DNA from: a virus
Lineage: Duplodnaviria; Heunggongvirae; Uroviricota; Caudoviricetes
Length of the DNA: 18,076 nt
Strand: one strand, 5' to 3'
IMG/VR virus record: IMGVR_UViG_2731957842_000001
Coordinates: 1-18,076 of that record
Shown here: positions 1 through 17,248 of the stretch, piece by piece
Numbering within the stretch: position 1 is the stretch's first letter
Layout: every line of letters starts with the position of its first letter
Made by a program: the position numbers and the translations under genes
The notes under the pieces: model-generated
What the model saw: the letters and a program-made list of their open reading frames with translations, nothing else
Databases searched by the model: none
What the model was told of the DNA's origin: nothing

Positions 1-553
1 GGCCAGTTCCTTTCCGGCCTGATAAACGCTGTTTTACTGCGTTAAGTTTTGCCTGTTGTGCACTGACACGCGCCAGCGCGTCGCGCTGACGGTTAAGCTG
101 GGCAGTGGTTTCACTGATACGGTTTTTCAGTCCCTGCTCATCATGTGCAAGATTGCGGGTATTAATTCCCACAGCGGCCAGTTCCCGCTGCTGGCGTTTA
201 ACGGAATCTGTCAGGCGGTTATATTTCGCCTGTAAGTCCTCCGCCGCACGCTTTGCGGATTCCAGCACTTTCGCCTGAGCACGGGTCGGACGTTCGGTGT
301 TTTTAAACTGTGTGGCAAGGGCTTCGGCCTCCTGCCGTGCCTTTTCAAGTGCATGACCAGTCACGGCGAGCTGTGCACTGGTCTTGCGGAACCCCTCAAT
401 ACGGGATGCGTGACCGTTCAGCTCGCGCAGTGATTTTTGTGTTTCCCGGATATCCCCCGACAGCGACTTGCTCGCTGTGCGGATGGATTTAAACGGGCGG
501 GATGCCTGGTCAACAGCCCTGAGCAATACCTGTAATTTTACATTGTTACTCAT
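1..553 (-). CDS. T: Tail tape measure protein, N-terminal part; 3' end runs off the window
   Basis: Minus-strand ATG at 553 (reverse complement of cat 551-553) opens a frame reading MSNNVKLQVLLRAVDQASRPFKSIRTASKSL..., coiled-coil-like and matching the recalled P2 gpT N-terminus. It sits immediately downstream of E/E', as in P2. Not in the ORF track because it is truncated by the window edge. Confidence 0.8.
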   Translation of the reverse strand, partial: MSNNVKLQVLLRAVDQASRPFKSIRTASKSLSGDIRETQKSLRELNGHASRIEGFRKTSAQLAVTGHALEKARQEAEALATQFKNTERPTRAQAKVLESAKRAAEDLQAKYNRLTDSVKRQQRELAAVGINTRNLAHDEQGLKNRISETTAQLNRQRDALARVSAQQAKLNAVKQRLSGRKGTG

Positions 554-973
554 TCGTGTTTCCGCTTCGCCGGAGCGCCTTTTCGCGCCATGTGATGAGT
601 TCGGTCAGGCTCATGGGATACAGTTCTGATGGCGGCCAGTGAAATATCACAGCCACATCTGCCATCAGGTCATCGACCGAGAGATTTTTCGGAAACGTCA
701 CTGCACCGAGTTCGGCGACAAAAAACCGACCACCTTACCGGCCAGCGCCACAAGGTCAGGCAGTTCCAGCGCGGCGACTTCCTGCTCGGTCAGCATCGGT
801 GCCGTCATGCGCGGCAGCACCTTAATCAGTGCATCGACTTCAGAGTTCGCGACCGCAGCCAGACTGACACCGCGCAGCGTCCCGGCATTGGGTTTCATCA
901 GCGTGACCTGTTCGATAACCTGCTCACCACGCTTGACCGGATTGTCCAGGGTAATCACATTTTCTTTGTTCAT
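546..973 (-). CDS. E+E': Tail assembly chaperone E+E', -1 programmed frameshift product (~142 aa)
   Basis: Hand translation in the -1 frame from the T_TTT_TTG heptamer continues ...VAELGAVTFPKNLSVDDLMADVAVIFHWPPSELYPMSLTELITWREKALRRSGNTNE to a stop at 546-548, overlapping the T start. Length is as recalled for P2 E+E'. Confidence 0.7.
698..973 (-). CDS. E: Tail assembly chaperone gpE (zero-frame product)
   Basis: 91-aa ORF MNKENVITLDNPVKRGEQVIEQ...; same length and position (between FII and T) as P2 E, and contains the slippery site near its 3' end. Confidence 0.85.
   Translation of the reverse strand: MNKENVITLDNPVKRGEQVIEQVTLMKPNAGTLRGVSLAAVANSEVDALIKVLPRMTAPMLTEQEVAALELPDLVALAGKVVGFLSPNSVQ
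719..725 (-). other. Slippery heptanucleotide T_TTT_TTG for the E/E' -1 ribosomal frameshift
   Basis: Plus strand 719-727 is caaaaaacc; on the minus strand the zero-frame codons are GGT TTT TTG, giving an X_XXY_YYZ heptamer at the conserved tail-chaperone position. Confidence 0.7.
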
Positions 974-1029
974 GGTTTTCTCACTTCTGAATCGGTGTTA
1001 ACCGGTCAGCCAGGCTGACCGGATGAAAA

Positions 1030-1548
1030 TCACAGGCCGATATTGCGGCGGTGTTGCTCCAGCCGGTCGACGCCGTTCACCTTCTCAATCATGTTGATGG
1101 TGTCGATTTCGACCAGCTCCTTACCGTCCATCGTCAGCCGGAAATAGGTGCAGACCACGGAGATTTTCGACTCGGTGTCTTCTCCCTGTTTGCCCTCGCC
1201 GGTGTCGATTTCTTTCTGACGTCCACGCATGACCACTTCGACGGCCACCGTTTCGCCGGTATCGTCGCGCTGGTAAGAGCCTGCAAAACGAATCGGCACG
1301 GCATCCACGCCGGTTGCGGCGTAAAGCTCCCAGATAACCGAATCCGGGAAGCCCCCGAGCGACCACTCCATTGACAGCGCATCATCATCAAGGCCGAGGT
1401 CTACCGGTGCGCTGCCGTTCATCCCCGCACCGCGATAGTTTTCGAGCTTACGGGTCAGTTTTGGCAGCGTGACGGACTTTGCAACGCCCTGATAGCTGTA
1501 GCCGTTCAGAAAGACGTTCATTAACTTGAGTTTGCGCGGCATTGCCAT
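1030..1548 (-). CDS. FII: Major tail tube protein
   Basis: 172-aa ORF MAMPRKLKLMNVFLNGYSYQGVAKSVTLPKLTRKLENYRGAG...; length and sequence match recalled P2 gpFII, directly downstream of FI. Confidence 0.9.
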   Translation of the reverse strand: MAMPRKLKLMNVFLNGYSYQGVAKSVTLPKLTRKLENYRGAGMNGSAPVDLGLDDDALSMEWSLGGFPDSVIWELYAATGVDAVPIRFAGSYQRDDTGETVAVEVVMRGRQKEIDTGEGKQGEDTESKISVVCTYFRLTMDGKELVEIDTINMIEKVNGVDRLEQHRRNIGL

Positions 1549-1560
1549 CGGTCAGGCTCC

Positions 1561-2751
1561 TTAATTGCTGTTAACCGAGGTGACCAGATTTGCCAGGTAT
1601 TTATCGGTAATACGCTGGCGCAGGGTCAGGTTTTCGAGAGGAGGCACCGGTGTATAGTCGTAGTCGATATACAGTTTTCCGGCCTTGAGGGTTTCCGCAT
1701 CGTTGGATTCTTCGCTGAACCAGCATGAGCCATCCACGATATAGCCGTTTGTTTTCAGCTCACGGAATTTGGCATTGATGCCGTCAACGATGTCGCGAAT
1801 CAGCGTTGCGGTGATGGGCTTGTCCACCGCCCACATGTGCGCCTCAGCCATCGTGTCGGCCAGCACCTGCGCGGTGCGGGTGTAGTTTTCAAAGAGGAAC
1901 AGCGGGTCATCAGAGCAGGTACGGTTACCCCAGAAGCGGAAACCGTCGCGGCGAATCAGCGTTGTGACGCCTGACTCATTAAGCAGGTCAGCATCGGTGC
2001 CGGACTCCTGCAAATCCCAGAATACAGATGCGCTGATGCCGGTAACACCGTTCACACCGACGTTGGACAGCGTTTTATGCCAGCCCTGCTCCTGGTCGAT
2101 TTTGGCACGCAGCCCCAGCGCACGGGCGGTGGCATACGCGGTGGCGGTGGTACTGGTGACCGTATCCCATGCGAGGAAATCCGGCCAGATGACCATCAGC
2201 TCACGCTGGCTGAAATTCTGGCGGTAGGCTTTCACCTCGGAAATGGTCTTACAGCCCCATGCGCTGATATATCCGAAAGCGCGCAGCTTCTGACAGACGG
2301 ATGCCAGTGCAACAGCCACCTCTTTGGTATCCAGCCCCGGCACACCGAGAATACGCGGTTTAACACCGGTTACCGACTCCGCCGCCAGCAGGGCTTTTAG
2401 TCCGGTGTACTGACCGTTTTCGTCGGTGGTGCCGATGATATTGGAAACGGTCTGCGCGAGTTTCGTTTCCTCGTCATCACCGGTGCCGTCTTCCACGCGC
2501 ACGACAACGGTGACCGGTTTTGACTGGTCAGCGATGGCCTGCAACGATGCCGCCAGCGTGCCTTTTTTACCGGCCTTTGCAATTGCGCTCTGCACATTGG
2601 TAATCAGCACAGGTTTATTGAGGGGGAAGGTTTCCGCATCCGCATCGCTGGCCGTGCAGACCATGCCGACAATGGCAGTGGATACGGTGGAAATGACGCG
2701 GGTGCCGTCGTTAATCTCCAGCACCTGCACGCCGTGATGATAGTCACTCAT
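1561..2751 (-). CDS. FI: Contractile tail sheath protein
   Basis: 396-aa ORF MSDYHHGVQVLEINDGTRVISTVSTAIVGMV...; length and sequence match recalled P2 gpFI. Confidence 0.9.
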   Translation of the reverse strand: MSDYHHGVQVLEINDGTRVISTVSTAIVGMVCTASDADAETFPLNKPVLITNVQSAIAKAGKKGTLAASLQAIADQSKPVTVVVRVEDGTGDDEETKLAQTVSNIIGTTDENGQYTGLKALLAAESVTGVKPRILGVPGLDTKEVAVALASVCQKLRAFGYISAWGCKTISEVKAYRQNFSQRELMVIWPDFLAWDTVTSTTATAYATARALGLRAKIDQEQGWHKTLSNVGVNGVTGISASVFWDLQESGTDADLLNESGVTTLIRRDGFRFWGNRTCSDDPLFLFENYTRTAQVLADTMAEAHMWAVDKPITATLIRDIVDGINAKFRELKTNGYIVDGSCWFSEESNDAETLKAGKLYIDYDYTPVPPLENLTLRQRITDKYLANLVTSVNSN

Positions 2752-2810
2752 CCGTTTAACTCCGTGGTTAATGGGTGAGTGGTATTTTCAGTTGTGCCGG
2801 AGATGTCAGG

Positions 2811-3404
2811 CTATTTGTCCCGGTTGGCTAAGGGATGACACAATTTATTCTTTGTCGCTGATGAGGGAAATTTTTTATAGAGCGTGGACAGGCCAATATC
2901 AAAAATCAGCGCCACACGTTGACGAGATTCCCCCGCAGCCAGCAACCGTCCGACCTGCTCCCACTCACTCGCGGTGAGTTTCGGACGCCTGCCACCAATA
3001 CGACCTTTAGCTCTGGCCGCTTCCAGTCCGGCGCGTGTCCGCTCGACAATGAGTTCTCGCTCCATTTCAGCCAGGGCACCCATCACATGAAAGAAAAAAC
3101 GCCCCATCGGCGTGCTGGTATCAATAGCATCCGTCAGACTGCGAAAATTAACGCCGCGTTCGCGCAGTTCCTCAACCAGAATGACCAGATGCCGCATACT
3201 ACGCCCCAGCCTGTCCAGCTTCCAGACTACCAGAGTGTCACCTGCTGATAATGTTCTGAGCAGTTTTTTCAGTCCCGGTCGGTCGGACTTCGTGCCGCTG
3301 ATTTTATCCTCAAAAATCCGCTCGCATCCTGCGCACTCCAGCGCGTTACGCTGCAATTCCGTGTTCTGGTCATTTGTTGACACGCGTACATAGCCAATAA
3401 GCAT
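2811..3404 (-). CDS. Site-specific DNA invertase, serine recombinase of the Hin/Gin/Pin/Cin (Din) family
   Basis: MLIGYVRVSTNDQNTELQRNAL...LVVWKLDRLGRSMRHL...FRSLTDAIDTSTPMGRFFFHVMGALAEMERELIVERT...GRIGGRRPKLT is near-identical in pattern to Gin/Pin, with the catalytic Ser in RVST and a C-terminal HTH. I take the second ATG (3404) as the start because AGGGGG sits 6 nt upstream of it; the track ORF starts 2 codons earlier at 3410. Confidence 0.9.
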   Translation of the reverse strand: MLIGYVRVSTNDQNTELQRNALECAGCERIFEDKISGTKSDRPGLKKLLRTLSAGDTLVVWKLDRLGRSMRHLVILVEELRERGVNFRSLTDAIDTSTPMGRFFFHVMGALAEMERELIVERTRAGLEAARAKGRIGGRRPKLTASEWEQVGRLLAAGESRQRVALIFDIGLSTLYKKFPSSATKNKLCHPLANRDK

Positions 3405-3459
3405 GAGCATCCCCCTGAATAAAAACCGGAGATGATGCCTGTTGCACGTAATCTCTGCA

Positions 3460-3485
3460 TTTTCTTAAACGTTGGTTTGGGAGAA
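3460..3485. other. Candidate gix/hix/pix-like inversion crossover site (degenerate 12-2-12 inverted repeat)
   Basis: TTTTCTTAAACG-TT-GGTTTGGGAGAA; the right half matches the recalled gix right half GGTTTTGGATAA at 10/12, the left half only about 7/12. It lies 56 bp upstream of the invertase start and at the 5' end of the tail-fibre fragment, where Din crossover sites are found. Confidence 0.35.
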
Positions 3486-3486
3486 G

Positions 3487-3690
3487 GTTCGGCATTACCC
3501 GTTGGCGTGCCTGTTCCGTGGCCTTCCGCCACTCCGCCAACAGGCTGGCTGAAATGCAACGGTGCCGCTTTTTCTGCTGAAGAATACCCGGAACTGGCAA
3601 AGGCTTATCCGACAAATAAATTGCCTGATTTACGTGGTGAGTTTATTCGTGGCTGGGATGACGGGCGTGGAGTGGATAGCCGGTCTTCAA
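3487..3690 (+). pseudogene. Remnant of an alternative tail-fibre C-terminal (variable) segment, truncated
   Basis: Plus-strand frame encodes ...PVGVPVPWPSATPPTGWLKCNGAAFSAEEYPELAKAYPTNKLPDLRGEFIRGWDDGRGVD, the conserved motif I recall just distal to the crossover site in Mu S/S', P1 S and e14 tail fibres. No N-terminal constant part precedes it and it runs straight into antisense gene R; the track ORF 3432..4043 is a chimera. Confidence 0.6.
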
Positions 3691-3701
3691 AACGCTTAAA
3701 C

Positions 3702-4169
3702 TCATTCATCCCACTTGCTCACCAGTTCGCCATTGATATACAGCTCCACCGGGCGGGTGACCGGCTCCGGCGGCGGGGGTTCCGGGATATTCTTCACATG
3801 CAGTGCGCCGTCCACCTCGCTGACCAGCGTGCGCTCGGTCAGCATCAGACTGATGCTGATATCAAAGCTGCTGTCATTGTTGATGTCTGCATAAAACGTG
3901 AAGCCCTTTTTCTGACCTTCGTCAGTGGTCATGATGTCGGGCTGATTTTCCCGCAGCCACGCCAGCACCGGCACGATGAGCAGGTCAAAATCACCGGTAA
4001 AGTCGGTCACAATGACATTGAGCGTGTAACGCTTTTCGAATGACAGCGACGTCGCCAGTGTGGAGGCAATACTCCCGTTATCCACGAATATCCGCAGCAT
4101 CTCGGGGCTGGTTTTCAGCACCGTGACGGCATCAGTCAGTGCCCTGCGCAGGCTGTCGGGTTTGAGCAT
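3702..4169 (-). CDS. R: Tail completion protein R
   Basis: 155-aa ORF MLKPDSLRRALTDAVTVLKTSPEMLRIF...; same length as P2 gpR and in the expected position after the lysis genes. Confidence 0.8.
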   Translation of the reverse strand: MLKPDSLRRALTDAVTVLKTSPEMLRIFVDNGSIASTLATSLSFEKRYTLNVIVTDFTGDFDLLIVPVLAWLRENQPDIMTTDEGQKKGFTFYADINNDSSFDISISLMLTERTLVSEVDGALHVKNIPEPPPPEPVTRPVELYINGELVSKWDE

Positions 4170-4422
4170 CGTTTTCGTCCTGACAGTGTTTAATCATTTT
4201 TACCTGGCTGGCACAGCGTGCCAGCGCGTTCTCAAGCTGCCGGATATCGGCACTTAAATCGCCGTTCGTCTCCGGGTCACTGCCCGGCATCGGGCAAAGA
4301 CTCACTTTCGGGCAGGCGTTGGCGACAATCACTGGCGTCAGTGCAGGCGGGGCGCTGGTGCAACCGGCGCACAGCATCAGGCAGGTCAGCACCGTACCAG
4401 CGGCGAAAATCTTCGTTTTCAT
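4132..4422 (-). CDS. lysC: Outer-membrane lipoprotein spanin (o-spanin), LysC/Rz1-like
   Basis: 96-aa product MKTKIFAAGTVLTCLMLCAGCTSAPP... with a lipobox (LCAGC), embedded in the +1 frame of lysB; the track ORF is longer because of an upstream alternative start. Confidence 0.75.
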   Translation of the reverse strand: MKTKIFAAGTVLTCLMLCAGCTSAPPALTPVIVANACPKVSLCPMPGSDPETNGDLSADIRQLENALARCASQVKMIKHCQDENDAQTRQPAQGTD

Positions 4423-4702
4423 TGAGTAATCTCGTGATGGTTTTCTCGCGCTGTGCTTCACGCTTCGCGGCGTTCTCCAGTTCCTGACGCAGTGCCACCT
4501 GCGCCAGCTCGTTTTTGTCTGCCCTGGTGAGCGCAACATGAAGCTGATTTTTCAGCATGGTGATGGTCGTCTGCTGCCCGCTGGCGACGTTGTTCGCCCT
4601 GTCCAGTGAGGCGCGCAGGCTGGCGTTTTCATGCTTCGCCAGAAACAGCCCCGCCACCGCCAGCGATAACAACACGACCAGTGCAATCATCAGCTTTGAC
4701 AT
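4277..4702 (-). CDS. lysB: Inner-membrane spanin (i-spanin), LysB/Rz-like
   Basis: 141-aa ORF with an N-terminal TM helix (MSKLMIALVVLLSLAVAGLFLA) and a coiled-coil periplasmic domain; same length as recalled P2 LysB. Confidence 0.8.
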   Translation of the reverse strand: MSKLMIALVVLLSLAVAGLFLAKHENASLRASLDRANNVASGQQTTITMLKNQLHVALTRADKNELAQVALRQELENAAKREAQREKTITRLLNENEDFRRWYGADLPDAVRRLHQRPACTDASDCRQRLPESESLPDAGQ

Positions 4703-5115
4703 AGTTCCCGCCCCTCAAGACGCTGACGGCAGGCCGTGCGTATCAGCCGGAAAAACAGCGACGCCACGAGATAAATCAGCGCGGTAAAAATCCACCCGGC
4801 AGCGACCAGCGCGATAAACGTCGCCACCATCACCACCAGAGCCGCCGCCCGTCTGCGCCACGGCACCGGCTGCAAAAACAGCGACGTGACAATCTTCACG
4901 GCCAGCGATTCCGGCGGCAGCTCCCGTCCGTAGCGTTCCAGTACATACTCCGTGGCATACACCCCGACACCACCGGCAACCACACAGATAACCGTCGCCA
5001 GAATCGCCCAGGTGGCGACAAAACTGACGGCCACGCTCTGCGGGTAAATCAGGGACAGTGCCAGCATCAGCGCCAGCGACACGTGCAGCATCAGTGAAAG
5101 GGATAATTTCTTCAT
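4690..5115 (-). CDS. lysA: Lysis-timing membrane protein LysA
   Basis: 141-aa multi-TM protein (MKKLSLSLMLHVSLALMLALSLIYP...) between endolysin and lysB, as in P2. Confidence 0.75.
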   Translation of the reverse strand: MKKLSLSLMLHVSLALMLALSLIYPQSVAVSFVATWAILATVICVVAGGVGVYATEYVLERYGRELPPESLAVKIVTSLFLQPVPWRRRAAALVVMVATFIALVAAGWIFTALIYLVASLFFRLIRTACRQRLEGRELCQS

Positions 5116-5129
5116 GGTGTTTACTCCGT

Positions 5130-5627
5130 TTAAGCCGGTACGCCGCCAGCGGTACGCCAGACGGTGACCAGTTTTTCCAGTGAATGCTCACGCTGACCGT
5201 AACCGGCACCCGGCAGGGACGCCCAGATATTGCGACAGCGTGAAATGGCGCGCTCAATGCGTCCCGCCCGGATGTCATCCAGTGCACCGCGTTCGCGGAT
5301 CAACTGAATGGCAAGTCTGTCCTGTGACAACGGACTGAAATCCGGCAGGGCAAGCTGTTTGCGGTAGTGCGGCCAGAACAGGTAAAGCTGCTGATAGCGA
5401 CCGGAGGCCGTGGATTTTTCACCGCGACGGTTAAACACCTTCGCCGGTCGGCCATGCGCGAACGGGTGGTCACTGTAGTCGGTAAAAATTTCCGGCTTCC
5501 CGTCCAGTCCGGTGACTATCACGTCATAGCCCCGGTTTTTCGTCAGCGGATGATTCGCCGTCCCTTCGGACACGGCCAGCATGTCGAGAAAGGCGGCGAT
5601 ATTCTGGTGCGTGTTAATTACCGGCAT
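5130..5627 (-). CDS. K: Endolysin (lysozyme-type)
   Basis: 165-aa ORF MPVINTHQNIAAFLDMLAVSEGTANHPLTKNRGYDVIVTG...; matches recalled P2 gpK in length and sequence. Confidence 0.9.
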   Translation of the reverse strand: MPVINTHQNIAAFLDMLAVSEGTANHPLTKNRGYDVIVTGLDGKPEIFTDYSDHPFAHGRPAKVFNRRGEKSTASGRYQQLYLFWPHYRKQLALPDFSPLSQDRLAIQLIRERGALDDIRAGRIERAISRCRNIWASLPGAGYGQREHSLEKLVTVWRTAGGVPA

Positions 5628-5908
5628 TACGGTTTCCCCCTGCCCTTAAAGCGGCGCTGAATGGCAATCTCAATCACCTGATAACCGGCGATACCCAGCA
5701 TGGAGCCGATGCCGCACACCGCAGGCAGTGACAGGTCAGGAAACTGCACCAGAACAACACCGGCAACCATCGAGACAAAACCACCGAGCAACATGCGCCC
5801 GATAAACAGACGCGGGGTGATGGGTTCACCACCGGCAAGCACCTTGCCGACAACAATCAGCACCCCAATCATGAAAAGCGACAGGACGCTTTTTTCTTCT
5901 GCTGTCAT
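5627..5908 (-). CDS. Y: Holin
   Basis: 93-aa ORF with hydrophobic TM segments (MTAEEKSVLSLFMIGVLIVVGKVLAGG...); overlaps the K start in an ATGA arrangement, as P2 Y does. Confidence 0.85.
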   Translation of the reverse strand: MTAEEKSVLSLFMIGVLIVVGKVLAGGEPITPRLFIGRMLLGGFVSMVAGVVLVQFPDLSLPAVCGIGSMLGIAGYQVIEIAIQRRFKGRGKP

Positions 5909-5911
5909 GCG

Positions 5912-6115
5912 TTACTCCCACAGATTGACAGTTTCAGCCACGGGCGCTGTCTGAACGTCGGGCAGTTCGACGGCGGTGCCGTGTGGCAGCACCGCACCCA
6001 GTTCAGACAGTCCCGGATTTGCGGCGAGCACGGTCTCAACCACGCCCTCAGTGCGCCCGTAATACCGGACACAGATGGCGTCGAGCGTGTCGCCCTGTAG
6101 CGCAAAGGTCTTCAT
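5912..6115 (-). CDS. X: Tail protein X (LysM-like)
   Basis: 67-aa product from the internal Met: MKTFALQGDTLDAICVRYYGRTEGVVETVLAANPGLSELGAVLP...; its start overlaps the L stop. Confidence 0.7.
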   Translation of the reverse strand: MKTFALQGDTLDAICVRYYGRTEGVVETVLAANPGLSELGAVLPHGTAVELPDVQTAPVAETVNLWE

Positions 6116-6624
6116 CAGATTTGACTCACGATGCAGCGCGGCTTGTCCTGGATACGCGCCACCGCCCAGCGCATATCCCGCCACAGCTCATCAATGGTGC
6201 TGTCTATGCTGTCGGCCTTTTTGTCGCCTTTCGCACTGGCATCCACGCCGCGATAACGCTCATAAAGCGACGCGGTCGCCATCGCACACACGGCGCGCTC
6301 GTAGTAAAAAACCTTGATGCTTTCACCGTCGATGTCGTCCGCCGGGACGTCCGCCAGACGCGTAAAACCGGCGGCAATTTTCTGTTCGCGGTACTCGTAC
6401 AGCTCCGCATTCGTCTCCGCCATGCCTGACTTGATGGCCTCTCGCAGACGGGCGGGGGCGACGGTCTGCTCAAGGCGCATACGTTCCCGGACGCGCTTCG
6501 GGTCGATATCGGGAAAAAAGAACGTGTTTTTAATCACCGGCTCGTCGCCTGCCGGTTGCGGGATGACCACCGTACCCTCACCGGACACGGGAGCCTCCTT
6601 TCGCGGAATAATCAGCGTCATCAT
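6115..6624 (-). CDS. L: Head completion / stabilisation protein
   Basis: 169-aa product starting MMTLIIPRKEAPVSGEG at 6624 with an AGAGG Shine-Dalgarno 5 nt upstream; the track ORF extends further from an alternative start. Confidence 0.8.
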   Translation of the reverse strand: MMTLIIPRKEAPVSGEGTVVIPQPAGDEPVIKNTFFFPDIDPKRVRERMRLEQTVAPARLREAIKSGMAETNAELYEYREQKIAAGFTRLADVPADDIDGESIKVFYYERAVCAMATASLYERYRGVDASAKGDKKADSIDSTIDELWRDMRWAVARIQDKPRCIVSQI

Positions 6625-6723
6625 GACTACCTCTGAAAAGTCGGGCGGTGGACGCCGGTGCAGTGTCAGGTGATTCACCCTCACTGACCGGCGTGCCGCC
6701 CTGGCGCGGGGCGCATTCGGTTG

Positions 6724-7461
6724 TTAACTGGCTTTCTTTTTCGGGCGTCCACGTTTTGCCGGTGTCGCACTCCGGGTCTTACGCGGGGCGCGGGTGACCG
6801 CTTTTGGCTCCGGCTTCGGTTTCAGCTCCCGCTCCAGTCGTTCAATCTCTTTTTTGACGCCTGCCTGACAGTCGAGCTGTGTCGCACGTTGCAGGTGTGC
6901 CAGCGCACCGGCGGCATCACCACCGTCACGCAGAAACAGACCGGTGATTTTGTGCAGCTTTGCGCGCACTTCATCAGGCATGTCAGCCGTGGCGGTCAGT
7001 TCAAGGGTGTCCGTCAGCAGGCGGGGATCCACAGACTCACCGGCAGCGTGAGCGCGCATGGCCGCGAGCGCCACCTCCTCGGTGAACATGTACGGCGGGG
7101 TGCGGCGGTGTTTACCCGGCATGGTCAGACCGTACTTCAGGGCGTAACGGGCAATCTCCAGCGCGCCGGCAATATCACCGGTATCCAGACGCCACAGCAT
7201 GACCGTCATCAGAATGTCATCCTGTGCGCCTTTGCCCTGCTCCAGCACGCCGTTCACCCACGGCAACCAGAACGGCAGCAGTTCGCGTTTTTTTGCGGCC
7301 TTCAGCTCTTTTGAATAAATCGCTTTCAGTGTGCGCTGGTCTGCGGCGAGCTTAACCAGCATCTGCTCATAGACAGTTGCATGTCGCAGCGGGGCGGCTT
7401 CCCGCTGCGCGGTCATCGCTGCCGAGACCCGCATCATGTGGCGCTGTGCGGGACTCGTCAT
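6724..7461 (-). CDS. M: Terminase small (endonuclease) subunit
   Basis: 245-aa ORF with a basic C-terminal tail (...RAPRKTRSATPAKRGRPKKKAS), directly downstream of N; matches recalled P2 gpM. Confidence 0.85.
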   Translation of the reverse strand: MTSPAQRHMMRVSAAMTAQREAAPLRHATVYEQMLVKLAADQRTLKAIYSKELKAAKKRELLPFWLPWVNGVLEQGKGAQDDILMTVMLWRLDTGDIAGALEIARYALKYGLTMPGKHRRTPPYMFTEEVALAAMRAHAAGESVDPRLLTDTLELTATADMPDEVRAKLHKITGLFLRDGGDAAGALAHLQRATQLDCQAGVKKEIERLERELKPKPEPKAVTRAPRKTRSATPAKRGRPKKKAS

Positions 7462-7464
7462 CGG

Positions 7465-8538
7465 TTACGCTCCCGGCTCTGCGGTCGCCCTGGCCGGTGT
7501 GGAGAAATCACCGACCTTAATTTTTTCCACCAGACAACCGGCGGCGTAGTCTTCCACCACGTAATCAATGTTCATTGACTCGTAGTTCTCCACGCGGTCG
7601 AGTTTCGGGTTTTCCACAATCACGCGGCGATGGCTGTCATCCATGTAGTAGATGGACAGGTTTTCCAGCTTCGTGATGAGCATCGCATCCGCCGGGAAGT
7701 ACGGGACACGTACCGCCGGCAGGTTACCGATGCGTTTCTGGCTGATGATGACGTCAGCGGCCAGCATTTCGCTGTTGTCCTGCTCCTTGTTGACGATGGG
7801 GAAATACTTGTCCGCCAGTAGCTGACGCCCCACAATCACCACAAGGTCAGGGTCTTCCTGATACCACGGCTCAATCAGGTTGTTGGTCGCATCCATCACC
7901 AGTGCATCGAGGCTGGCATAATCACCGCCCTTACCCACGCGGATGACCTCAGAGGTCGTGTGACCTTCCTCGTCAGTAACCTTGCTCATCACGCGCGCCG
8001 GGGCTTCATTGCGGTATTTCTGCAGCCAGCCGACCGCCACATCCTGCAGCATCGGGTTACTGCTGCGGTCAGAGGTTTCGGCACGCTTCACGCCGTTAAA
8101 ACCGGCCATGATGAAATCAAGGGACTGGCGTTTGATAATGGCGTTACGGACACGGAGCTGGAAATCCTGATAACGCGCCCACAGGTCCAGCGTTTTGTAG
8201 CGGATATAAAAATCGAAGTTAATCTGGTCGCATTCGTACTTGTTTGACGCCAGCTTCGAGAAGTCCTTCGGCTGGCGCTCGGTGCCACCGGCGGTGTCGG
8301 TGGTGCTGGCGATGGAGCCGGTGACACCGATGCCAATTTTTTCCCCTTTCATTTCGCTGACCGGCACAATGTTGATGCGGGTCAGAAAGTCAGAGGACTC
8401 CTGCATGGTGTTCATCAGGGTCTGGGTGACCGACGGTTCAACGGTGAATTTTTTCGACACATCACCGGCGTCGATGCCGTTCAGTTCGGCAACACGGGAC
8501 AGGTAAGCATTAAATTTAAAGCGGGTTTCCTGGCGCAT
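7465..8538 (-). CDS. N: Major capsid protein
   Basis: 357-aa ORF MRQETRFKFNAYLSRVAELNGIDAGDVSKKFTVEPSVTQTLMNTMQESSDF...; length and sequence match recalled P2 gpN. Confidence 0.9.
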   Translation of the reverse strand: MRQETRFKFNAYLSRVAELNGIDAGDVSKKFTVEPSVTQTLMNTMQESSDFLTRINIVPVSEMKGEKIGIGVTGSIASTTDTAGGTERQPKDFSKLASNKYECDQINFDFYIRYKTLDLWARYQDFQLRVRNAIIKRQSLDFIMAGFNGVKRAETSDRSSNPMLQDVAVGWLQKYRNEAPARVMSKVTDEEGHTTSEVIRVGKGGDYASLDALVMDATNNLIEPWYQEDPDLVVIVGRQLLADKYFPIVNKEQDNSEMLAADVIISQKRIGNLPAVRVPYFPADAMLITKLENLSIYYMDDSHRRVIVENPKLDRVENYESMNIDYVVEDYAAGCLVEKIKVGDFSTPARATAEPGA

Positions 8539-8596
8539 AGTTTTTCCTGAAATTAAGGGTTAATCGTGAAGGTTTTCCCGGACTGACTGACGCCGG

Positions 8597-9451
8597 TCAG
8601 CAGTTCGTCATCAGGGCGTCACCGCCACCACCGGTGGCCTTGCTGCGGCGCTGCTGGGTCAGACTTTCGGTGTGGTCGAGACTGTTTTTCAGGCGGGTGA
8701 ATGCCTGGCTGGTTTCATCCGCCCTGTCAGTCACCTCCTGCTTAAGTGCGGAAAAGGCGGTTTCCATCTCAGCGAGGCGCTGCTCAGTGGCGCTCAGTTT
8801 TTCCTGCACATGTTCAGCAACAGCGGTCACCGCTTCATGCACATCATTCAGACGGGCGTCATCGCTGGCCTGTTTGCGGCCAAAAATGGATTTCACCTTT
8901 TCGGTCAGGGCGGTGAACACGGTTTCAGGCAGGTCTTCAAATTCCAGCTCAACGGGCGTTGCCACTGAAATCAGGTTTTCAGGGCTTAATTTGAAGCGGT
9001 TCAGAGGGTTGTGTTTTGCCGTGCGGCAGAATTCCAGGTATTCCGTGCCGAGGCTTGCCGGGTCATCGGTGACGGCCAGCCCCACCAGATAACATTTGCC
9101 GGTGTTGGCAAAGTTCGGCTGAATTTCCATTGAGGTGTAGACCTTCTGCGCGGCCTTGTTCATCGCGATAAGGTCATCGGTCGGGGTGATTTTCGCAAAC
9201 AGCGCCCATTTGCCTTTCAGCGCCGAATCGTCATCAATCTTTTCGGCCTTCAGTTCGACCACATCGCCATAACGTTTAAAAATACCGTCAGGCAGGATGC
9301 CGCGCAGATGTTCCAGGTTAATGCGGCAACCGTAGACACGCGGGTCAAAGGTTTCGGCCATTTCCTGAATATCCTGCGCACTGATGACACGCCCGTCACA
9401 GGTGTCACCCTCAACGCCGATACGAAAGAATTTTGAGACTTTTTTTGCCAT
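8597..9451 (-). CDS. O: Capsid scaffolding protein
   Basis: 284-aa product from the internal ATG at 9451 (MAKKVSKFFRIGVEGDTCDGRVISAQDIQEMAETFDP...); the track ORF starts further upstream. Confidence 0.85.
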   Translation of the reverse strand: MAKKVSKFFRIGVEGDTCDGRVISAQDIQEMAETFDPRVYGCRINLEHLRGILPDGIFKRYGDVVELKAEKIDDDSALKGKWALFAKITPTDDLIAMNKAAQKVYTSMEIQPNFANTGKCYLVGLAVTDDPASLGTEYLEFCRTAKHNPLNRFKLSPENLISVATPVELEFEDLPETVFTALTEKVKSIFGRKQASDDARLNDVHEAVTAVAEHVQEKLSATEQRLAEMETAFSALKQEVTDRADETSQAFTRLKNSLDHTESLTQQRRSKATGGGGDALMTNC

Positions 9452-9624
9452 TGTCAGGAGTCCTGAATAGTGATTAGAGGAGTCACATGTCGGCATCAGT
9501 TTCCCGACGATGCGCATCCTCCGCCATCAGTCCCGGATGGCTTATCACTGACACAACAGCACCTTAGCGAATCGCGGGGCGCGACTCAGTAGCCTTGCCG
9601 TGTATTCATCACGGCGAGGTATTC
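9452..9624. promoter_or_regulatory. Divergent late-promoter region between O (leftward) and P-Q (rightward)
   Basis: 173-bp intergenic region flanked by divergent operon starts. It contains the inverted repeat GTCGG-N10-CCGAC at 9489-9508, loosely like the TGT-N12-ACA element of Ogr-dependent P2 late promoters. No -10/-35 could be pinned down by eye. Confidence 0.35.
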
Positions 9625-11397
9625 ATGACCATCACCACAGACACCACTCTTTTACACGACCCGCGTCGTCAGGCGGCGCTGCTGTACTGGCAGGGGTTTT
9701 CCGTGCCGCAGATTGCCGCCATGTTGCAGATGAAACGCCCGACGGTGCAGAGCTGGAAACAGCGCGACGGCTGGGACAGCGTTGCCCCCATCAGCCGTGT
9801 CGAAATGAGCCTGGAAGCGCGGCTGACCCAGCTCATCATCAAACCGCAGAAAACCGGCGGTGACTTCAAGGAAATTGACCTGCTGGGACGCCAGATTGAA
9901 CGACTGGCGCGGGTCAACCGCTACAGTCAGACCGGCAACGAGGCAGACCTTAATCCGAACGTCGCTAACCGCAACAAAGGCGGGCGTCGCAAACCGAAAA
10001 AGAATTTTTTCAGTGACGAAGCCATCGAAAAGCTGGAGCAGATTTTCTTTGAGCAGTCTTTCGACTATCAGTTGCACTGGTATCGCGCCGGGCTTGAGCA
10101 CCGCATCCGCGATATACTGAAATCCCGCCAGATTGGCGCAACGTTTTATTTTTCCCGCGAGGCGCTGCTGCGCGCCCTGAAAACCGGCCATAACCAGATT
10201 TTTCTGTCGGCCAGTAAAACGCAGGCGTATGTGTTCCGCGAATACATCATCGCCTTTGCCCGTCTGGTTGACGTTGACCTGACCGGTGACCCGATTGTCC
10301 TGGGCAATAACGGCGCAAAACTAATTTTTCTCGGCACCAACTCCAACACCGCACAGAGCCATAACGGCGACCTGTACGTCGACGAGATTTTCTGGATCCC
10401 GAATTTTCAGGTACTGCGTAAGGTGGCATCAGGTATGGCCTCACAGAGTCACCTGCGTTCGACCTATTTCTCCACCCCGTCCACGCTGGCGCACGACGCC
10501 TACCCGTTCTGGTCAGGTGAACTGTTCAACCGGGGACGCGCCAGCGCCGCCGAACGCGTGGAAATCGACGTCAGTCATAACGCCCTTGCCGGTGGGCTTC
10601 TCTGTGCGGACGGCCAGTGGCGGCAGATTGTCACCATTGAGGACGCCCTGAAAGGTGGCTGCACGCTGTTCGACATTGAGCAGCTCAAACGTGAAAACAG
10701 CGCCGACGATTTTAAAAACCTGTTCATGTGTGAATTTGTTGACGACAAGGCGTCGGTGTTCCCGTTCGAGGAGCTGCAACGCTGCATGGTCGACACGCTG
10801 GAAGAATGGGAAGACTATGCGCCGTTTGCCGCCAATCCGTTCGGCTCCCGCCCGGTATGGATTGGTTACGACCCGTCACACCGTGGCGACAGCGCCGGAT
10901 GCGTGGTGCTGGCACCGCCGGTGGTGGCCGGTGGCAAATTCAGAATACTTGAGCGTCACCAGTGGAAAGGCATGGACTTTGCCACCCAGGCGGAATCCAT
11001 CCGCAAACTCACCGAAAAATATAACGTTGAATACATCGGGATTGATGCCACCGGCCTCGGTGTCGGCGTGTTCCAGCTCGTGCGCTCGTTCTATCCCGCC
11101 GCGCGCGATATCCGCTACACGCCGGAAATGAAAACCGCAATGGTGCTCAAGGCAAAAGACGTTATCCGCCGTGGCTGTCTGGAATATGACGTCAGCGCCA
11201 CCGACATCACCAGCTCGTTCATGGCTATCCGCAAGACCATGACCAGCAGCGGACGCAGCGCCACCTATGAGGCCAGCCGCAGCGAGGAAGCCAGCCACGC
11301 CGACCTCGCCTGGGCAACCATGCACGCCCTGTTAAATGAGCCACTCACCGCCGGTATCAGCACTCCGCTGACATCCACCATTCTGGAGTTTTACTGA
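9625..11397 (+). CDS. P: Terminase large (ATPase) subunit
   Basis: 590-aa product from the ATG at 9625, with GAGG 6 nt upstream; the stop overlaps the Q start (TGATG). Length and sequence match recalled P2 gpP. Confidence 0.9.
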   Translation: MTITTDTTLLHDPRRQAALLYWQGFSVPQIAAMLQMKRPTVQSWKQRDGWDSVAPISRVEMSLEARLTQLIIKPQKTGGDFKEIDLLGRQIERLARVNRYSQTGNEADLNPNVANRNKGGRRKPKKNFFSDEAIEKLEQIFFEQSFDYQLHWYRAGLEHRIRDILKSRQIGATFYFSREALLRALKTGHNQIFLSASKTQAYVFREYIIAFARLVDVDLTGDPIVLGNNGAKLIFLGTNSNTAQSHNGDLYVDEIFWIPNFQVLRKVASGMASQSHLRSTYFSTPSTLAHDAYPFWSGELFNRGRASAAERVEIDVSHNALAGGLLCADGQWRQIVTIEDALKGGCTLFDIEQLKRENSADDFKNLFMCEFVDDKASVFPFEELQRCMVDTLEEWEDYAPFAANPFGSRPVWIGYDPSHRGDSAGCVVLAPPVVAGGKFRILERHQWKGMDFATQAESIRKLTEKYNVEYIGIDATGLGVGVFQLVRSFYPAARDIRYTPEMKTAMVLKAKDVIRRGCLEYDVSATDITSSFMAIRKTMTSSGRSATYEASRSEEASHADLAWATMHALLNEPLTAGISTPLTSTILEFY

Positions 11398-12430
11398 TGA
11401 GCAAGAAAAAAGGGAAAACACCGCGACCTGCGGCAAAAACAATCACCGCCAGCGCCCCGAAAATGGAAGCATTCACCTTTGGCGAGCCGGTGCCGGTACT
11501 CGACCGCCGTGACATTCTGGATTACGTCGAGTGCATCAGTAACGGCAGATGGTATGAGCCGCCGGTCAGCTTTACCGGTCTGGCAAAAAGCCTGCGTGCT
11601 GCCGTGCATCACAGCTCACCGATTTACGTCAAACGTAATATTCTGGCTTCAACGTTTATCCCGCACCCGTGGCTTTCCCAGCAGGATTTCAGCCGCTTTG
11701 TGCTGGATTTTCTGGTGTTCGGTAATGCGTTTCTGGAAAAGCGTTACAGCACCACCGGTAAGGTCATCAGACTGGAAACCTCACCGGCCAAATATACCCG
11801 TCGTGGCGTGGAGGAGGATGTTTACTGGTGGGTGCCGTCCTTCAACGAGCCGACAGCCTTCGCGCCCGGCTCCGTGTTTCATCTGCTGGAGCCTGATATT
11901 AATCAGGAGCTGTACGGCCTGCCGGAATATCTCAGCGCCCTTAACTCTGCCTGGCTGAATGAGTCGGCCACGCTGTTCCGCCGCAAGTATTACGAAAACG
12001 GCGCACATGCCGGATACATCATGTACGTCACCGATGCCGTGCAGGACCGCAACGATATCGAAATGCTTCGCGAAAACATGGTTAAGTCGAAAGGCCGCAA
12101 CAACTTTAAAAACCTGTTTCTCTATGCCCCGCAGGGGAAAGCTGACGGCATTAAAATTATCCCGCTCAGTGAAGTGGCAACGAAGGACGATTTTTTAATA
12201 TCAAAAAAGCCAGTGCCGCAGACCTGCTGGATGCGCACCGCATCCCCTTTCAGTTGATGGGCGGCAAGCCGGAGAACGTCGGGTCGTTGGGTGATATTGA
12301 GAAAGTGGCAAAGGTCTTTGTCCGCAATGAGCTTATCCCGTTACAGGACAGGATCCGCGAGATAAACGGCTGGCTCGGTCAGGAGGTCATCCGCTTTAAA
12401 AACTACTCACTGGACACTGACAACGGCTGA
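11397..12430 (+). CDS. Q: Portal protein, reading frame interrupted by an apparent 1-nt deletion in a T-run at 12191-12196
   Basis: The frame from ATG 11397 reads 266 aa of portal sequence, then ...KDDFLISKKPVPQTCWMRTASPFS to a stop at 12257. The -1 frame from 12197 reads NIKKASAADLLDAHRIPFQLMGGKPENVGSLGDIEKVAKVFVRNELIPLQDRIREINGWLGQEVIRFKNYSLDTDNG to a stop at 12428-12430, just before a terminator. Joined with a T7 run, the product is about 344 aa, as recalled for P2 gpQ. Confidence 0.8.
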
Positions 12431-12435
12431 ACATC

Positions 12436-12457
12436 GCCGCCTGCGGGCGGCTTTTTT
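12436..12457 (+). terminator. Rho-independent terminator after the P-Q operon
   Basis: GCCGCC-TGCG-GGCGGC stem-loop followed by TTTTTT, beginning 6 nt after the Q stop. Confidence 0.6.
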
Positions 12458-12599
12458 ACACCCCGTCATCACGCACTCACACGCTCACCACCGCACAAAA
12501 CACCCCGCAGACACACCAATGCCCCGGCGCACAATCTAAACGCTGTCACGACGCGCTCAGACGCTGAAAAAATAAAATCAGCACCACCGCCAGCGCGCA

Positions 12600-12618
12600 G
12601 TGCTTTCCCCGCCTCGCC
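12600..12618. other. cos cohesive-end sequence of the P2/186 type
   Basis: GTGCTTTCCCCGCCTCGCC is the reverse complement of GGCGAGGCGGGGAAAGCAC, which I recall as the 19-nt P2 cohesive end. It sits just distal to Q, where cos lies in P2. Confidence 0.7.
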
Positions 12619-12742
12619 CGCCCGCTTCATGGGGCGGTTTTAATGCAAATGCATTCTGGTTCCATGCATTTTGATGGCAATAGTATACGCACAAAATTTA
12701 TCGGACATAACGTATGCATTTTCATGCACCGTCATGCCCCCC

Positions 12743-12830
12743 TTGACAATCCCATGATTTTTTAGAGCAAGCTTGCATTCCATACTGTCAAAACACATTA
12801 TATACTTGGGCTTTTTATACAAGGACTTAA
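12743..12830 (+). promoter_or_regulatory. Candidate promoter/RBS region for the ATPase-partner operon
   Basis: TTGACA at 12743-12748 and TATACT at 12801-12806, but their spacing is not canonical; AAGGA Shine-Dalgarno at 12821-12825, 7 nt before the ATG. The exact promoter is unresolved. Confidence 0.3.
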
Positions 12831-12832
12831 AC

Positions 12833-14531
12833 ATGTTAACAAAATTCTCAGGAAAAAATTACAAAGCATTTAAGGATTTCTCGTTCGAGATTAAGCCTAT
12901 AACGGTGTTATTAGGAGCAAATAGCTGTGGAAAAAGCGCACTTATCAATTCACTTTTGATGTTTTCACAAACAGCAGAAACAATAAACATTTCCGAATCA
13001 GCACTAAGATTAAATGGAAATAAGGTTGGCATGGGGGAATCTCTGAATATCATCAGAGAAAAAACCCAAAAACACCTTAAGTTTTTCATTTGAAATATCA
13101 AATCAACAATCCTTGCGATACGACATTCACAAAAGCAAGCGCGATTTTATTGACTTCTATTTTTCACTTGCCAGATATTTGGGACAAGTATTAAAAAGTG
13201 CGGCATCAACAACACCCAGCAGTGATTTGATGAACAATAGTTTTAATGACACATTAAAAACTATTGATAAAATCGAATCAAACTATATGTTTAGAGACAC
13301 TTACAACTCTGCACAACTTAAAGCCATTTCTGATGGTGTTTGCGAATTATTATCAAAATACAGACAACTACCTGAGGATGTTGCAAAAAAATCCCGTCCA
13401 CATCTCGATCGACTAGCAGAGTTTGTTAATATTGTTTCTTTCGAAAACATTCAAAGCAGCTTAATGTCATTAGCATCTCTTAGTGCAAAAAAAATATCCC
13501 CCAAACGAATTGATTATGATTTTTGCTTTGATAAAAAATCAAACCAACTAAAAATAACCGGGTGCGCTTTTCATAATCACTTAGGCGAATGCATCACCAG
13601 CTTGGGTATATCTAAAGGGAAATTCTTTTTACGCTCTGACGTTATTAAAAGAACTCACTTAAGCAAATCCCGAGAAGAGATATCGAAGCTAATCAATTTC
13701 AATTCACTATCCCTTATAGATGAAATTCAAAACGTTAATTTCATTGACAAACACATTGTGTCCCTTGACCCATTCGCTAGTTTATTCTGCAACTATCTTG
13801 AGAAGCTAACAAAAGCATTTATCTCTGAGTTTAATGGTGTAAAAATAAATCATGTCAGCCCATTAAGGGCATTCCCTCAACGCTACTATCTTTTAGACAA
13901 GTCTATACAGCATACTTTTCTTAATGTTCTGGAAGGTAATGAACTGGCTGAGGTGTTAAAGAAAAATCCAGAAATAAAAAATAAAATTAATATTTTACTG
14001 GCAAAGTTCAATCTTGAAGTAGATGTCGTCATGGTTAATGACATCATTCATAAGATCAACATCACCCAAGATTCCATCTCTCTAGAGTTAACAGATGTAG
14101 GTTTTGGCATATCTCAGGTTTTACCTATTTTGGTTCAAGCCTATTTGTCCCCTAAAAATTCCATCACTATTATAGAACAACCAGAAATTCACTTACACCC
14201 CAAAATGCAAGCATGGCTCACTGACGCTTTAATTCACATTGCATTAAAAGAGAAAAAAAGATTTATTATTGAAACTCACAGTGACGCTCTAATCAGAAGA
14301 ATCAGATTGCGTATTGTTGATACTAAATCGAGCCTTACACCAAATGATGTAATGCTTTGCAATCTTGAAAGAAAATCTGAAGATAATGTCACTAGTTTAA
14401 AAGTGATTCCTATTACCGAGGATGGAGATATAACTTGGCCTGCGGATTTTTTAGACATTGAAATTCAAGACACACTTCAAATCCAGAATTTTAAAGTTAA
14501 AAAACATCTTAAAAGTAAAGGTCTGTTATAA
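12833..14531 (+). CDS. SMC/OLD-type ABC ATPase (AAA_15/AAA_21-like), frame interrupted in an A-run at 13059-13064; ~565 aa if bridged
   Basis: N-terminus MLTKFSGKNYKAFKDFSFEIKPITVLLGANSCGKSALINSL carries a Walker A (GANSCGKS). This frame stops at 13093, while a second frame is open from 13047 and continues ...KPKNTLSFSFEISNQ... to 14531. The C-terminal region has a signature-like GFGISQ, Walker B ITIIEQPE and H-loop HLHP, with a long helical insert between. The region is ~30% GC. Its stop is immediately followed by the next gene's ATG. Confidence 0.75.
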
Positions 14532-15533
14532 ATGTTTTACACTCATTGTATAAGCCCTGAATTCATGGGGCTTCACATCAAAAATATGGACACTTTTATT
14601 TCGATTTTTATGGGTGTTTTAATGAATCCGAAGAACCAGATCGTTTTAGATGAGGCAGGAATAATTGAACAACAATATTTATTAAGTCTTAATAACGACA
14701 AATCAGCTTTTTTGCTCTACCAAACTTGGGAGAAAGCCATAAAATCAGACAGTTGCCAAGGTAAACTATTACTTTCTTCTCCCAATATATCATCTTCAAT
14801 ACATGATTATGTAGTTTCAGCTATTTCATGTGCTATAACCACAAACGACAAAACAATATTAACTGCTGATAACAATTTGTACAGCGCGGCTTTACCTGTT
14901 TTATCCAGACAAAGAATTCACTTACTGGGAATAAGTCATCTAACCCCTCAATCATCAGCAAGCATTATAGGTAAACATATGTCTTTTACAAAACTTGATT
15001 ATGATATTGCCTGGTCTCTAGAGAGATTGGTTCGGCTTCATCGAAAAGGGAACACAGAGGATGACTTAAATGACTTACTCCGTGAATACTTGCTTGCGAA
15101 GGAATACGAGATAAAAGACCAAACTCGTGAAGGCATATCTACAAGTGGAAAGAGCGCCGGAGAACTTGATATTATTGTTGAGCACAACTCAAACATGTTT
15201 GCAATACTAGAAGCAATGAAGCTTAGTCAGATAAACAAGGAGTATATCACCATTCATTACAAAAAAATGCTTGTCAATTACAACCCTCTGGACGTAAAGA
15301 GATTATTCCTCATTACTTATTACGATGGAAAAAAATTCGATACTTGGTGGGATAACTACGTTGAATTTGTAAAAAGTATAGACTACACCACATTAAACCC
15401 TGAAGTCGAAAACACAACATTTGTTAACACAGAAAAGATTAACACGAACTTTGGGAATGTAAAAAAAATGCTACACCACGGTCTGGCTAATGGTGAACAA
15501 TTTTCCGTCATACATTATGCAGTAAAACTGTAA
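14532..15533 (+). CDS. Partner protein of the ATPase, function unknown; candidate effector
   Basis: 333-aa ORF starting 1 nt after the ATPase stop (TAA-ATG), with the same low GC. No family recognised by eye. Weak motifs: VLDEAG plus a downstream DYD (possible Toprim/DUF4435-like) and GELDIIVEH...ILEAMK (possible restriction-endonuclease-like). Followed by a strong terminator. Confidence 0.65.
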   Translation: MFYTHCISPEFMGLHIKNMDTFISIFMGVLMNPKNQIVLDEAGIIEQQYLLSLNNDKSAFLLYQTWEKAIKSDSCQGKLLLSSPNISSSIHDYVVSAISCAITTNDKTILTADNNLYSAALPVLSRQRIHLLGISHLTPQSSASIIGKHMSFTKLDYDIAWSLERLVRLHRKGNTEDDLNDLLREYLLAKEYEIKDQTREGISTSGKSAGELDIIVEHNSNMFAILEAMKLSQINKEYITIHYKKMLVNYNPLDVKRLFLITYYDGKKFDTWWDNYVEFVKSIDYTTLNPEVENTTFVNTEKINTNFGNVKKMLHHGLANGEQFSVIHYAVKL

Positions 15534-15540
15534 CTCTTAT

Positions 15541-15569
15541 AACGTGGTGATTGATATCACCACGTTTTT
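15541..15569 (+). terminator. Rho-independent terminator after the two-gene module
   Basis: Perfect 10-bp stem AACGTGGTGA / TCACCACGTT with a 6-nt loop, followed by TTTTT, 8 nt after the partner gene stop. Confidence 0.65.
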
Positions 15570-15834
15570 ATCCTAAAACAAAATAACAGAAGTTTAGTTA
15601 AAACCGCCTTTCAATTCTTTTAGATATATGGTCTACATACCAGAATTATTATTTCAGGTAATCGTCCGCATGATGAGTTCATTGCTATCCATTGCTCTAT
15701 AGTTTCGGCTATCAACATATCGAACAACCTGACCTGTACTCACCAATTTGCATAAAACTGTCACACCCCAAGGTTTTTACCAACACTGAAAATAACACCA
15801 ATCAGATAATTATCTATTTAGATTAACTTAGTTA

Positions 15835-16323
15835 TCATAAATTCCATTCGGATACTGTTGAATAACCAAGCCACTCATCAGCGACCGGATACGTGAATTT
15901 TTTCCCGTCATAATTTACGGTCGCGCCACGCGCCAGCGCCTCAAGCTCCCATCGCTGCGGCCTGATACCGTTCTGAGCAAGGTCAACGCGGATACGGGTG
16001 ATTTGCATTCGTTCCGACCGGGTCAGTCTGGCCGACGGTGCAATTTCATATGGTTTTAACGGGCTTCCGTTTCTTTGCTGACGGTTTTGCGTTCTCCGAC
16101 CGTGTTTTAATGCGCCCCTGAGCGCCCTCACAACCTCCGGGTCATTCCATTCTATAACCCCGTCATCAACCAGATTAAGCACTGCTGCAGCGTGCTCAGA
16201 CGGTGTGGGAGCCTGTAATGAAGTATCACCACCGGTGAGCTTTCCACAGTTATTGACAGGACTCCGAGGCGCGGCGATGCCGCTTTTTAAAGTCAAAGGC
16301 TCAACGACCGGCACTTTCGGCAC
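15835..16323 (-). CDS. Hypothetical protein, likely last gene of the phage early-region operon
   Basis: 162-aa ORF at phage-like GC, transcribed toward cos as P2 early genes are. The start is uncertain: GTG at 16323 with no convincing ATG or Shine-Dalgarno. No family recognised. Confidence 0.45.
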   Translation of the reverse strand: MPKVPVVEPLTLKSGIAAPRSPVNNCGKLTGGDTSLQAPTPSEHAAAVLNLVDDGVIEWNDPEVVRALRGALKHGRRTQNRQQRNGSPLKPYEIAPSARLTRSERMQITRIRVDLAQNGIRPQRWELEALARGATVNYDGKKFTYPVADEWLGYSTVSEWNL

Positions 16324-16425
16324 AATGCGCCAGTCCGTGGTTCTGGTGATATGAATATGACGCGCGCCGAGATGCGGCGCGTAATTCAGCCTGTTGTTCC
16401 TGAATAAAATCTACGTTGTCCGGCA

Positions 16426-16716
16426 TTACCAGTTCCTTTTGTCGTTCAGTTTTTTAAATTCATCAGCGCAATAGCTGGCGATTTCTGTCGTTAATTTCGT
16501 CAGTTCATCCACGGAGGAAATTTGCTTGTGAAATACAGCGCGTTTAACAAGTAAATTGACCACATCAGACAGGAGATTTAATTTATCCGCATAAATGGCT
16601 ATAGTTGATTCCACCATATCCCCAGTGTTTTTATCGCGTTTAATATCAGCTAGCGACAAATCACCATTTTTCATGACTGAAATCTTCAGCCAGTTATTAA
16701 GCAATATATTTTTCAT
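16426..16716 (-). CDS. Hypothetical protein
   Basis: 96-aa ORF, ~38% GC, overlapping the upstream ORF by 4 nt (operon-like packing). No family recognised. Confidence 0.4.
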   Translation of the reverse strand: MKNILLNNWLKISVMKNGDLSLADIKRDKNTGDMVESTIAIYADKLNLLSDVVNLLVKRAVFHKQISSVDELTKLTTEIASYCADEFKKLNDKRNW

Positions 16717-16964: not shown

Positions 16965-16972
16965 CTTTCCTG

Positions 16973-17197: not shown

Positions 17198-17248
17198 GCA
17201 AAAAGAAGCCCCGCACGATTAAGTGCGTTAAAAACTTTGGTTAATTAC

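Follow-up and report, generated by a model that had tools for sequence, protein, structure and literature searches.

A probable deletion scar of about 5.6 kb between genes R and FI of a P2-like prophage in Escherichia coli VL2874

The window analysed in this study, 18,076 bp in length, is the entire contig JTFE01000060.1 of assembly GCA_001441335.1 from E. coli VL2874. This strain, whose genome record is JTFE00000000, is a clinical bovine-mastitis isolate of phylogroup A and ST10 (PMC4725725); sequencing on the Roche 454 GS FLX Titanium yielded 280-336 thousand reads (230-291 nt), from which Newbler 2.6 built the assembly (PMC4556653). From the read numbers and read lengths, we computed a draft coverage of ~13-20x. 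Pfam searches returned Phage_GPO, Phage_cap_P2, Phage_term_smal, Phage_GPL, holin, LysC, P2_Phage_GpR, sheath, and tube matches in P2 order, and the window DNA is 97-99% identical to annotated P2-like prophages, which identifies the window as a P2-like (Peduovirus-type) prophage. The ORF listing and Pfam placed the tube gene FII at 1030-1548 on the minus strand; beyond R, also on the minus strand, come lysC, lysB, lysA, K, Y, X, L, M, N, and O, followed after O by P and Q on the plus strand. We take the gene order of P2 to be Q P / O N M L X Y K lysA/B/C R S V W J I H G FI FII E T. The block from S to G is absent from the window, an absence accounted for by the deletion described below, and the tail genes retained besides R are those for the sheath, the tube, and E/E', together with at least part of T. 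The window starts inside the tape-measure gene T and ends near cox, and the contig stops short of int, C, ogr, and D. For comparison, we aligned the window with four relatives, namely the prophage of the O55:H7 strain USDA5905 (L001; NZ_CP039837.1, 1966903-1991973), which gave the best match to the left side of the R-FI interval, that of XJ34 (L002), that of E. coli TO73 (L003), and L005.

The interval between R and FI is where the window departs from the P2 plan. Its left border is FI (1561-2751, minus strand), an intact tail sheath gene of 396 aa that matches Pfam Phage_sheath_1, Phage_sheath_1C, and Gp18_domIII_N and is colinear with L001 10962-12152. Its right border is R (3702-4169, minus strand), an intact tail completion gene of 155 aa that covers the whole of P2_Phage_GpR (E = 6e-45, 1-133/133) and has the same length as its counterpart at L001 18686-19153. 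The initial annotation had counted 950 bp from the R stop (3702) to the FI start (2751), and we obtained exactly the same figure. Within this space lies an intact serine DNA invertase gene of 197 aa (2811-3404, minus strand), or of 199 aa if translation began at the in-frame ATG farther upstream (3410). The protein carries a Resolvase domain (Pfam, E = 8e-53, residues 5-137), an HTH_7 domain (residues 140-183), and the motif YVRVSTNDQ, so that it has both the size and the domains of the Din family (Gin/Cin/Pin/Hin). It also matches the Mu Gin structures 3uj3 and 4m6f over residues 1-182 (E = 4e-94), and all 197 of its 197 residues agree with those of WP_000905108.1, the invertase encoded by the intact prophage L001. 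No exact match to the Ogr-type late-promoter motif TGT-N12-ACA was found upstream of FI, and the overall count of this motif was at the chance level.

Next to the invertase gene, on the plus strand, is a fibre fragment of 82 codons (3435-3680; Pfam Collar, E = 2e-15) that corresponds to the start of the L001 CDS at 12836-13381. This fragment is the beginning of a silent alternative tail-fibre C-terminal segment (collar domain), cut by the deletion. Inside it, at 3460-3486, lies a complete crossover site of the gix/cix/pix type (26-27 bp; ATTTTCTTAAACGTTGGTTTGGGAGAAG), homologous to the L001 arm at 12861-12887. Just past the crossover site begins a match to the fibre gene of strain 2452, in which 69 of 70 aa (99%) are identical to residues 350-419; in strain 2452, the same fibre allele stands in the expressed orientation, joined to the constant part of H. 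Pfam, structural comparison, and alignment to relatives thus agree with the initial annotation in assigning a Din-family invertase, a plus-strand fibre fragment, and a crossover site to the R-FI interval; the similarities involved are much stronger than chance would give.

The initial annotation also had R abutting the fibre fragment. The fragment does lie next to the R region, but the two are not in direct contact: the first 10 codons of S (3709-3679) survive, and ~23 bp of S separate them. The S start codon (3709-3707) overlaps the R stop and opens a 34-codon ORF (S' remnant, 3605-3709, minus strand), in which the start of S is fused out of frame to the antisense strand of the fibre sequence. 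Its translation runs MNEFKRFEDRL/STPRP... to a stop, compared with MNEFKRFEDRLTGLIE at the N-terminus of intact S. On the opposite strand, the fibre frame crosses the junction and continues antisense through most of R, forming an ORF at 3432-4043 (plus strand; publicly called as 3507-4043). This ORF (3432/3507-4043), recorded as a 'tail collar' gene overlapping R, is spurious.

In all relatives examined (L001, L002, L003, and L005; 97-99% identical), S-V-W-J-I-H-tfa lie between R and FI. The intact order is R, S, V, W, J, I, H, tfa, an invertible segment (tfa' and the alternative fibre C-terminus), the invertase gene, and FI. L001, for instance, is annotated as FII, FI, recombinase, 'phage tail protein' (plus strand, 546 nt), tfaE (plus), tfa (minus), H-like fibre (minus), I, J, W, V, S, R, and lysC. 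One arm of a 27-nt inverted repeat (TTTTCATAAACGTTGGTTTGGGAGAAG and its partner) lies beside the invertase gene (12861-12887), the other within H (14841-14867). Relatives with the same invertase hold a Mu-G-like segment that contains a pair of opposed tfa genes along with a silent alternative fibre C-terminus; the inverted repeats and the opposed tfa genes of L001 bear out the earlier suggestion that the ancestor had a Mu G-like invertible fibre segment. That fibre segments of P2-like E. coli prophages do invert has been demonstrated by experiment in EPEC E2348/69 (PMC4272514). In L003, an ISEc12 element (IS21-family, 10324-12626) lies within the invertible fibre segment and splits tfa, which represents another decay route for the same module.

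Alignment to L001 located the missing DNA. Window positions 1-3664 correspond to L001 9403-13065 (99.0% identity) and positions 3678-10081 to L001 18662-25071 (97.8%); the two blocks are colinear, nothing in the window matches L001 ~13080-18661, and ~5,583 bp of L001 are therefore missing from the window. The same gap was seen in the alignment to L002. The lost DNA comprises the distal two thirds of the silent fibre segment, tfaE, tfa, H, I, J, W, V, and S beyond its first 10 codons, and with it went the second crossover site, which lies inside H. When the window was compared with the sequences to the left and to the right of the gap in L001, L002, L003, and L005, the junction fell at 3678-3680, where codon 82 of the silent alternative fibre segment meets codon 10-11 of S (31 nt into S); R is complete and untouched. 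The initial annotation had proposed a deletion running from the inverted alternative fibre segment to just past R, and the break mapped here by alignment to intact relatives lies where it predicted. Intact P2-like E. coli prophages with an invertible fibre segment, such as those of USDA5905 and EPEC E2348/69 and phage pro483, match the window in gene order and, to either side of the scar, in DNA sequence (97-99% identity); they share the invertase-proximal crossover site and the silent fibre start and encode an identical invertase protein, whereas the window is without the 5.6 kb and most of gene A.

The junction itself contains a short homology. Up to the break, the fibre allele closest to the window is that of L005 (99.2% identity), with the sequence GGATAGCGGTCGTAC; the sequence on the S side is GGTCAGCCGGTCTTC, and that of the window is GGATAGCCGGTCTTC. 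The two sides share an exact microhomology of 3 nt (AGC) within a 7-of-8 imperfect direct repeat, AGCGGTC on the left and AGCCGGTC on the right; the 3-nt figure presumes an ancestral fibre allele of the L005 type, as the L001 or L003 alleles share 1 nt only. A random join would show at least 3 nt of microhomology with a chance of ~0.05.

From these observations, we consider it very likely that the interval is the scar of a single ~5.6-kb deletion by short-homology recombination in the P2-like prophage of VL2874. The ancestor would have carried a Mu-G-type invertible fibre segment and a Gin-like invertase gene between the fibre genes and FI. At the time of the deletion, the segment must have been oriented with this fibre C-terminus silent, on the strand opposite to H. 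RecA-independent illegitimate recombination may then have joined fibre codon 82 to S codon 10-11, through either slipped mispairing or microhomology-mediated end joining at AGCGGTC and AGCCGGTC. Such an event would have taken out the rest of the invertible segment with both tfa genes, H, I, J, W, V, S, and the second crossover site.

The scar does lie beside a crossover site and an invertase that looks active, and serine invertases can occasionally delete DNA between directly repeated sites. The Gin-like recombinase might thus have resolved the crossover site against a directly oriented site or pseudo-site near the R/S boundary. The product junction of such a reaction would fall in the central dinucleotide of the site, whereas the actual junction is ~190 bp from the center of the crossover site; the site itself is whole, and the 190 bp of fibre sequence after it are colinear. 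In addition, no second crossover site or pseudo-site was found in the window at <=3 mismatches, the copy at 3460-3486 being the sole one. We therefore regard a deletion made by the invertase as extremely improbable; a scar beside a recombinase gene need not be the product of that recombinase. Deletion mediated by an insertion sequence was ruled out, as no IS sequence is present at or near either this junction or the second one described next.

A second deletion, of 2.18 kb, was found near the other end of the window. Positions 3678-16384 correspond to L002 16909-29606 and positions 16381-18076 to L002 31786-33481. Relative to XJ34, the deletion takes the 5' three quarters of the replication endonuclease gene A, the DUF5405 gene, and most of the TraR/DksA gene, and it leaves a 3' remnant of gene A of ~183 codons (15835-16384, minus strand) that ends at the second junction. 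This junction (16381-16384) has a microhomology of 4 nt (GTAA), for which the random chance is ~0.016. Both junctions are of the short-homology kind, and the same style of event therefore happened twice. The initial annotation considered the loss of tail genes only; its account of the tail module stands, but the deletion in gene A, which went unmentioned there, disables the prophage further.

The two junctions were then sought in public collections. A BLAST search of positions 2600-4300 against 5,426 complete E. coli genomes gave thousands of partial matches, none of which spanned both sides of the tail junction. BLAST against the phage and plasmid sets likewise gave no match covering both sides, and no exact match to this junction was present in the GTDB species representatives or the JGI metagenomes. 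The second junction is absent from the 5,426 complete E. coli genomes and from the phage and plasmid sets. Both junctions are thus private to the VL2874 contig, and no independent assembly confirms either deletion. The truncated portal protein encoded in the window (11397-12257) is present on one public contig, JTFE01000060.1 itself.

This privacy bears on whether the scar could be an assembly artefact, in which Newbler joined non-adjacent parts of one prophage, or of two P2-like prophages, while the tail genes are truly present in the strain. The source is a low-coverage 454/Newbler draft (~13-20x), two 'deletions' found nowhere else occur in one contig, and its ends, within T and close to cox, could coincide with the borders of repeats shared with a further P2-like element. 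Contig ends in Newbler assemblies often represent repeats, and VL2874 may carry a second P2-like element that shares T-U-D-ogr and int-C-cox with this one. The contig also contains four homopolymer indels relative to the relatives, of a type typical of 454 errors: T7 to T6 at 12191, which truncates portal Q to 286 aa; A7 to A6 at 13065 and A6 to A5 at 13068, which split an AAA ATPase gene; and AA to AAA at 24, which shifts the frame of T near the contig end. With 454 chemistry as the source, sequencing error is a more probable cause of these four indels than pseudogenisation, and the portal and ATPase frameshifts should be annotated as probable 454 errors.

Against an artefact, overlap assemblers need tens of bases, and the two sides of the tail junction share 3 nt (8 nt imperfect). 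The longest word common to the 600-bp neighbourhoods of the endpoints is 11 nt, so that there is no repeat that could have misled an overlap assembler. Several chimeric reads would have had to break at the same base, and this would have had to happen twice within 18 kb; moreover, both junctions resemble classical microhomology deletions. We therefore consider a misassembly unlikely and infer a genuine deletion.

A different explanation is that the lineage normally lacks or relocates its baseplate and fibre genes, as in a satellite-like or helper-dependent architecture. Apart from the homopolymer indels, the remaining genes are intact, as this explanation would have it. Relocation was named in the initial annotation as a finding that would overturn its reading, and the relatives examined, every one of which carries the block between R and FI, speak against it. 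Adjacency of R and the invertase gene was found in 0 of the 5,426 complete genomes, and the truncated S' and the truncated fibre gene are broken genes, not a designed boundary. The replication gene A is deleted too; because the A protein of P2 is cis-acting, its loss could not be made good by a helper. A satellite-like design is accordingly very improbable.

Short-homology deletion, which remains the preferred origin of the scar, separated the site-specific invertase from its substrate. An invertible segment has two inverted crossover sites; L001 has both, and the window has one, the invertase-proximal arm of the 27-nt repeat. Of the two fibre C-termini, the tfa genes, and the constant N-terminus that such a fibre switch comprises, the window retains 82 codons of one C-terminus, with no tfa and no H. 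The retained site is of the same type as those of Mu G/Gin, P1 C/Cin, and e14 P/Pin, with the AAAC..GGTTT core, and the match to Gin is full length. What is switched, in Mu G, P1 C, and e14 P as in the relatives of the window, is a cargo made up of a fibre C-terminus with tfa, whereas the window keeps one site and one truncated cargo gene. Because only this single site and single truncated gene are left, the invertase, which has no partner site in cis, would not be able to invert anything there. The invertase protein is 100% identical to the copy in the intact prophage, and for this reason the Fis-bound recombinational enhancer is probably unchanged as well. The invertase could act in trans on other Din-type segments.

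The consequences for the prophage appear to be severe. It is not a complete inducible genome, as it lacks S, V, W, J, I, H, and tfa together with three quarters of A. With no baseplate, fibre, or S encoded, it should be unable to form functional tails, and, judged from its sequence, the deletion in gene A would leave it replication-defective too. The element is a decaying, defective prophage, a product of ordinary prophage decay, and the VL2874 prophage should be annotated as defective. Prophage decay by deletion is well known, and the P2 remnant ogrK-yegZ of K-12 is a cryptic prophage. Cryptic E. coli prophages have likewise lost morphogenesis and replication genes by deletion while some of their genes stayed intact; compared with them, decay is at an early stage here, with two clean deletions in an otherwise intact-looking element of ~18 kb or more and no IS elements. 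A defective prophage with a retained invertase is also on record in e14 (PMC4272514). The scar itself has not been described before, whereas orphaned prophage invertases, as in e14, and deletional decay are already known, and the scar reveals no new mechanism. The locus is a cleanly mapped case of early prophage decay, in which tail assembly and replication have each been put out of action by a short-homology deletion, and its wider significance is little.

It could be argued that the remnant is not the outcome of random decay, and that the invertase, intact and identical to the copies in active prophages, was kept for action in trans on e14 P or the fibre segment of another prophage in this ST10 strain, or the element was domesticated for its lysis, capsid, or defence-hotspot genes. 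The one observation in favor of this idea is the intactness of the remaining genes, and we consider it decidedly improbable; ordinary decay is the reading that we retain.

A cargo locus occupies ~12822-15533 (plus strand), at the position of old/tin in P2, and encodes an AAA_15/AAA_21 ATPase followed by a 333-aa protein. The best PADLOC matches of the ATPase were NsnB, PDC-M55A, HEC-03B, and AriA, and the 333-aa protein had no Pfam or PADLOC match. The pair is probably a two-gene anti-phage system in a known P2 hotspot. Elsewhere in the window, several small differences from XJ34 were noted: the terminase small subunit gene M has two in-frame 3-nt deletions, the N-O intergenic region has gained 4 nt (6805-6806, 8581), and the spacer downstream of Q carries several short insertions (CG, T, CGCAC, and CACAC; 12464-12482). 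These differences in M, the N-O region, and the Q spacer look like ordinary allelic variation.
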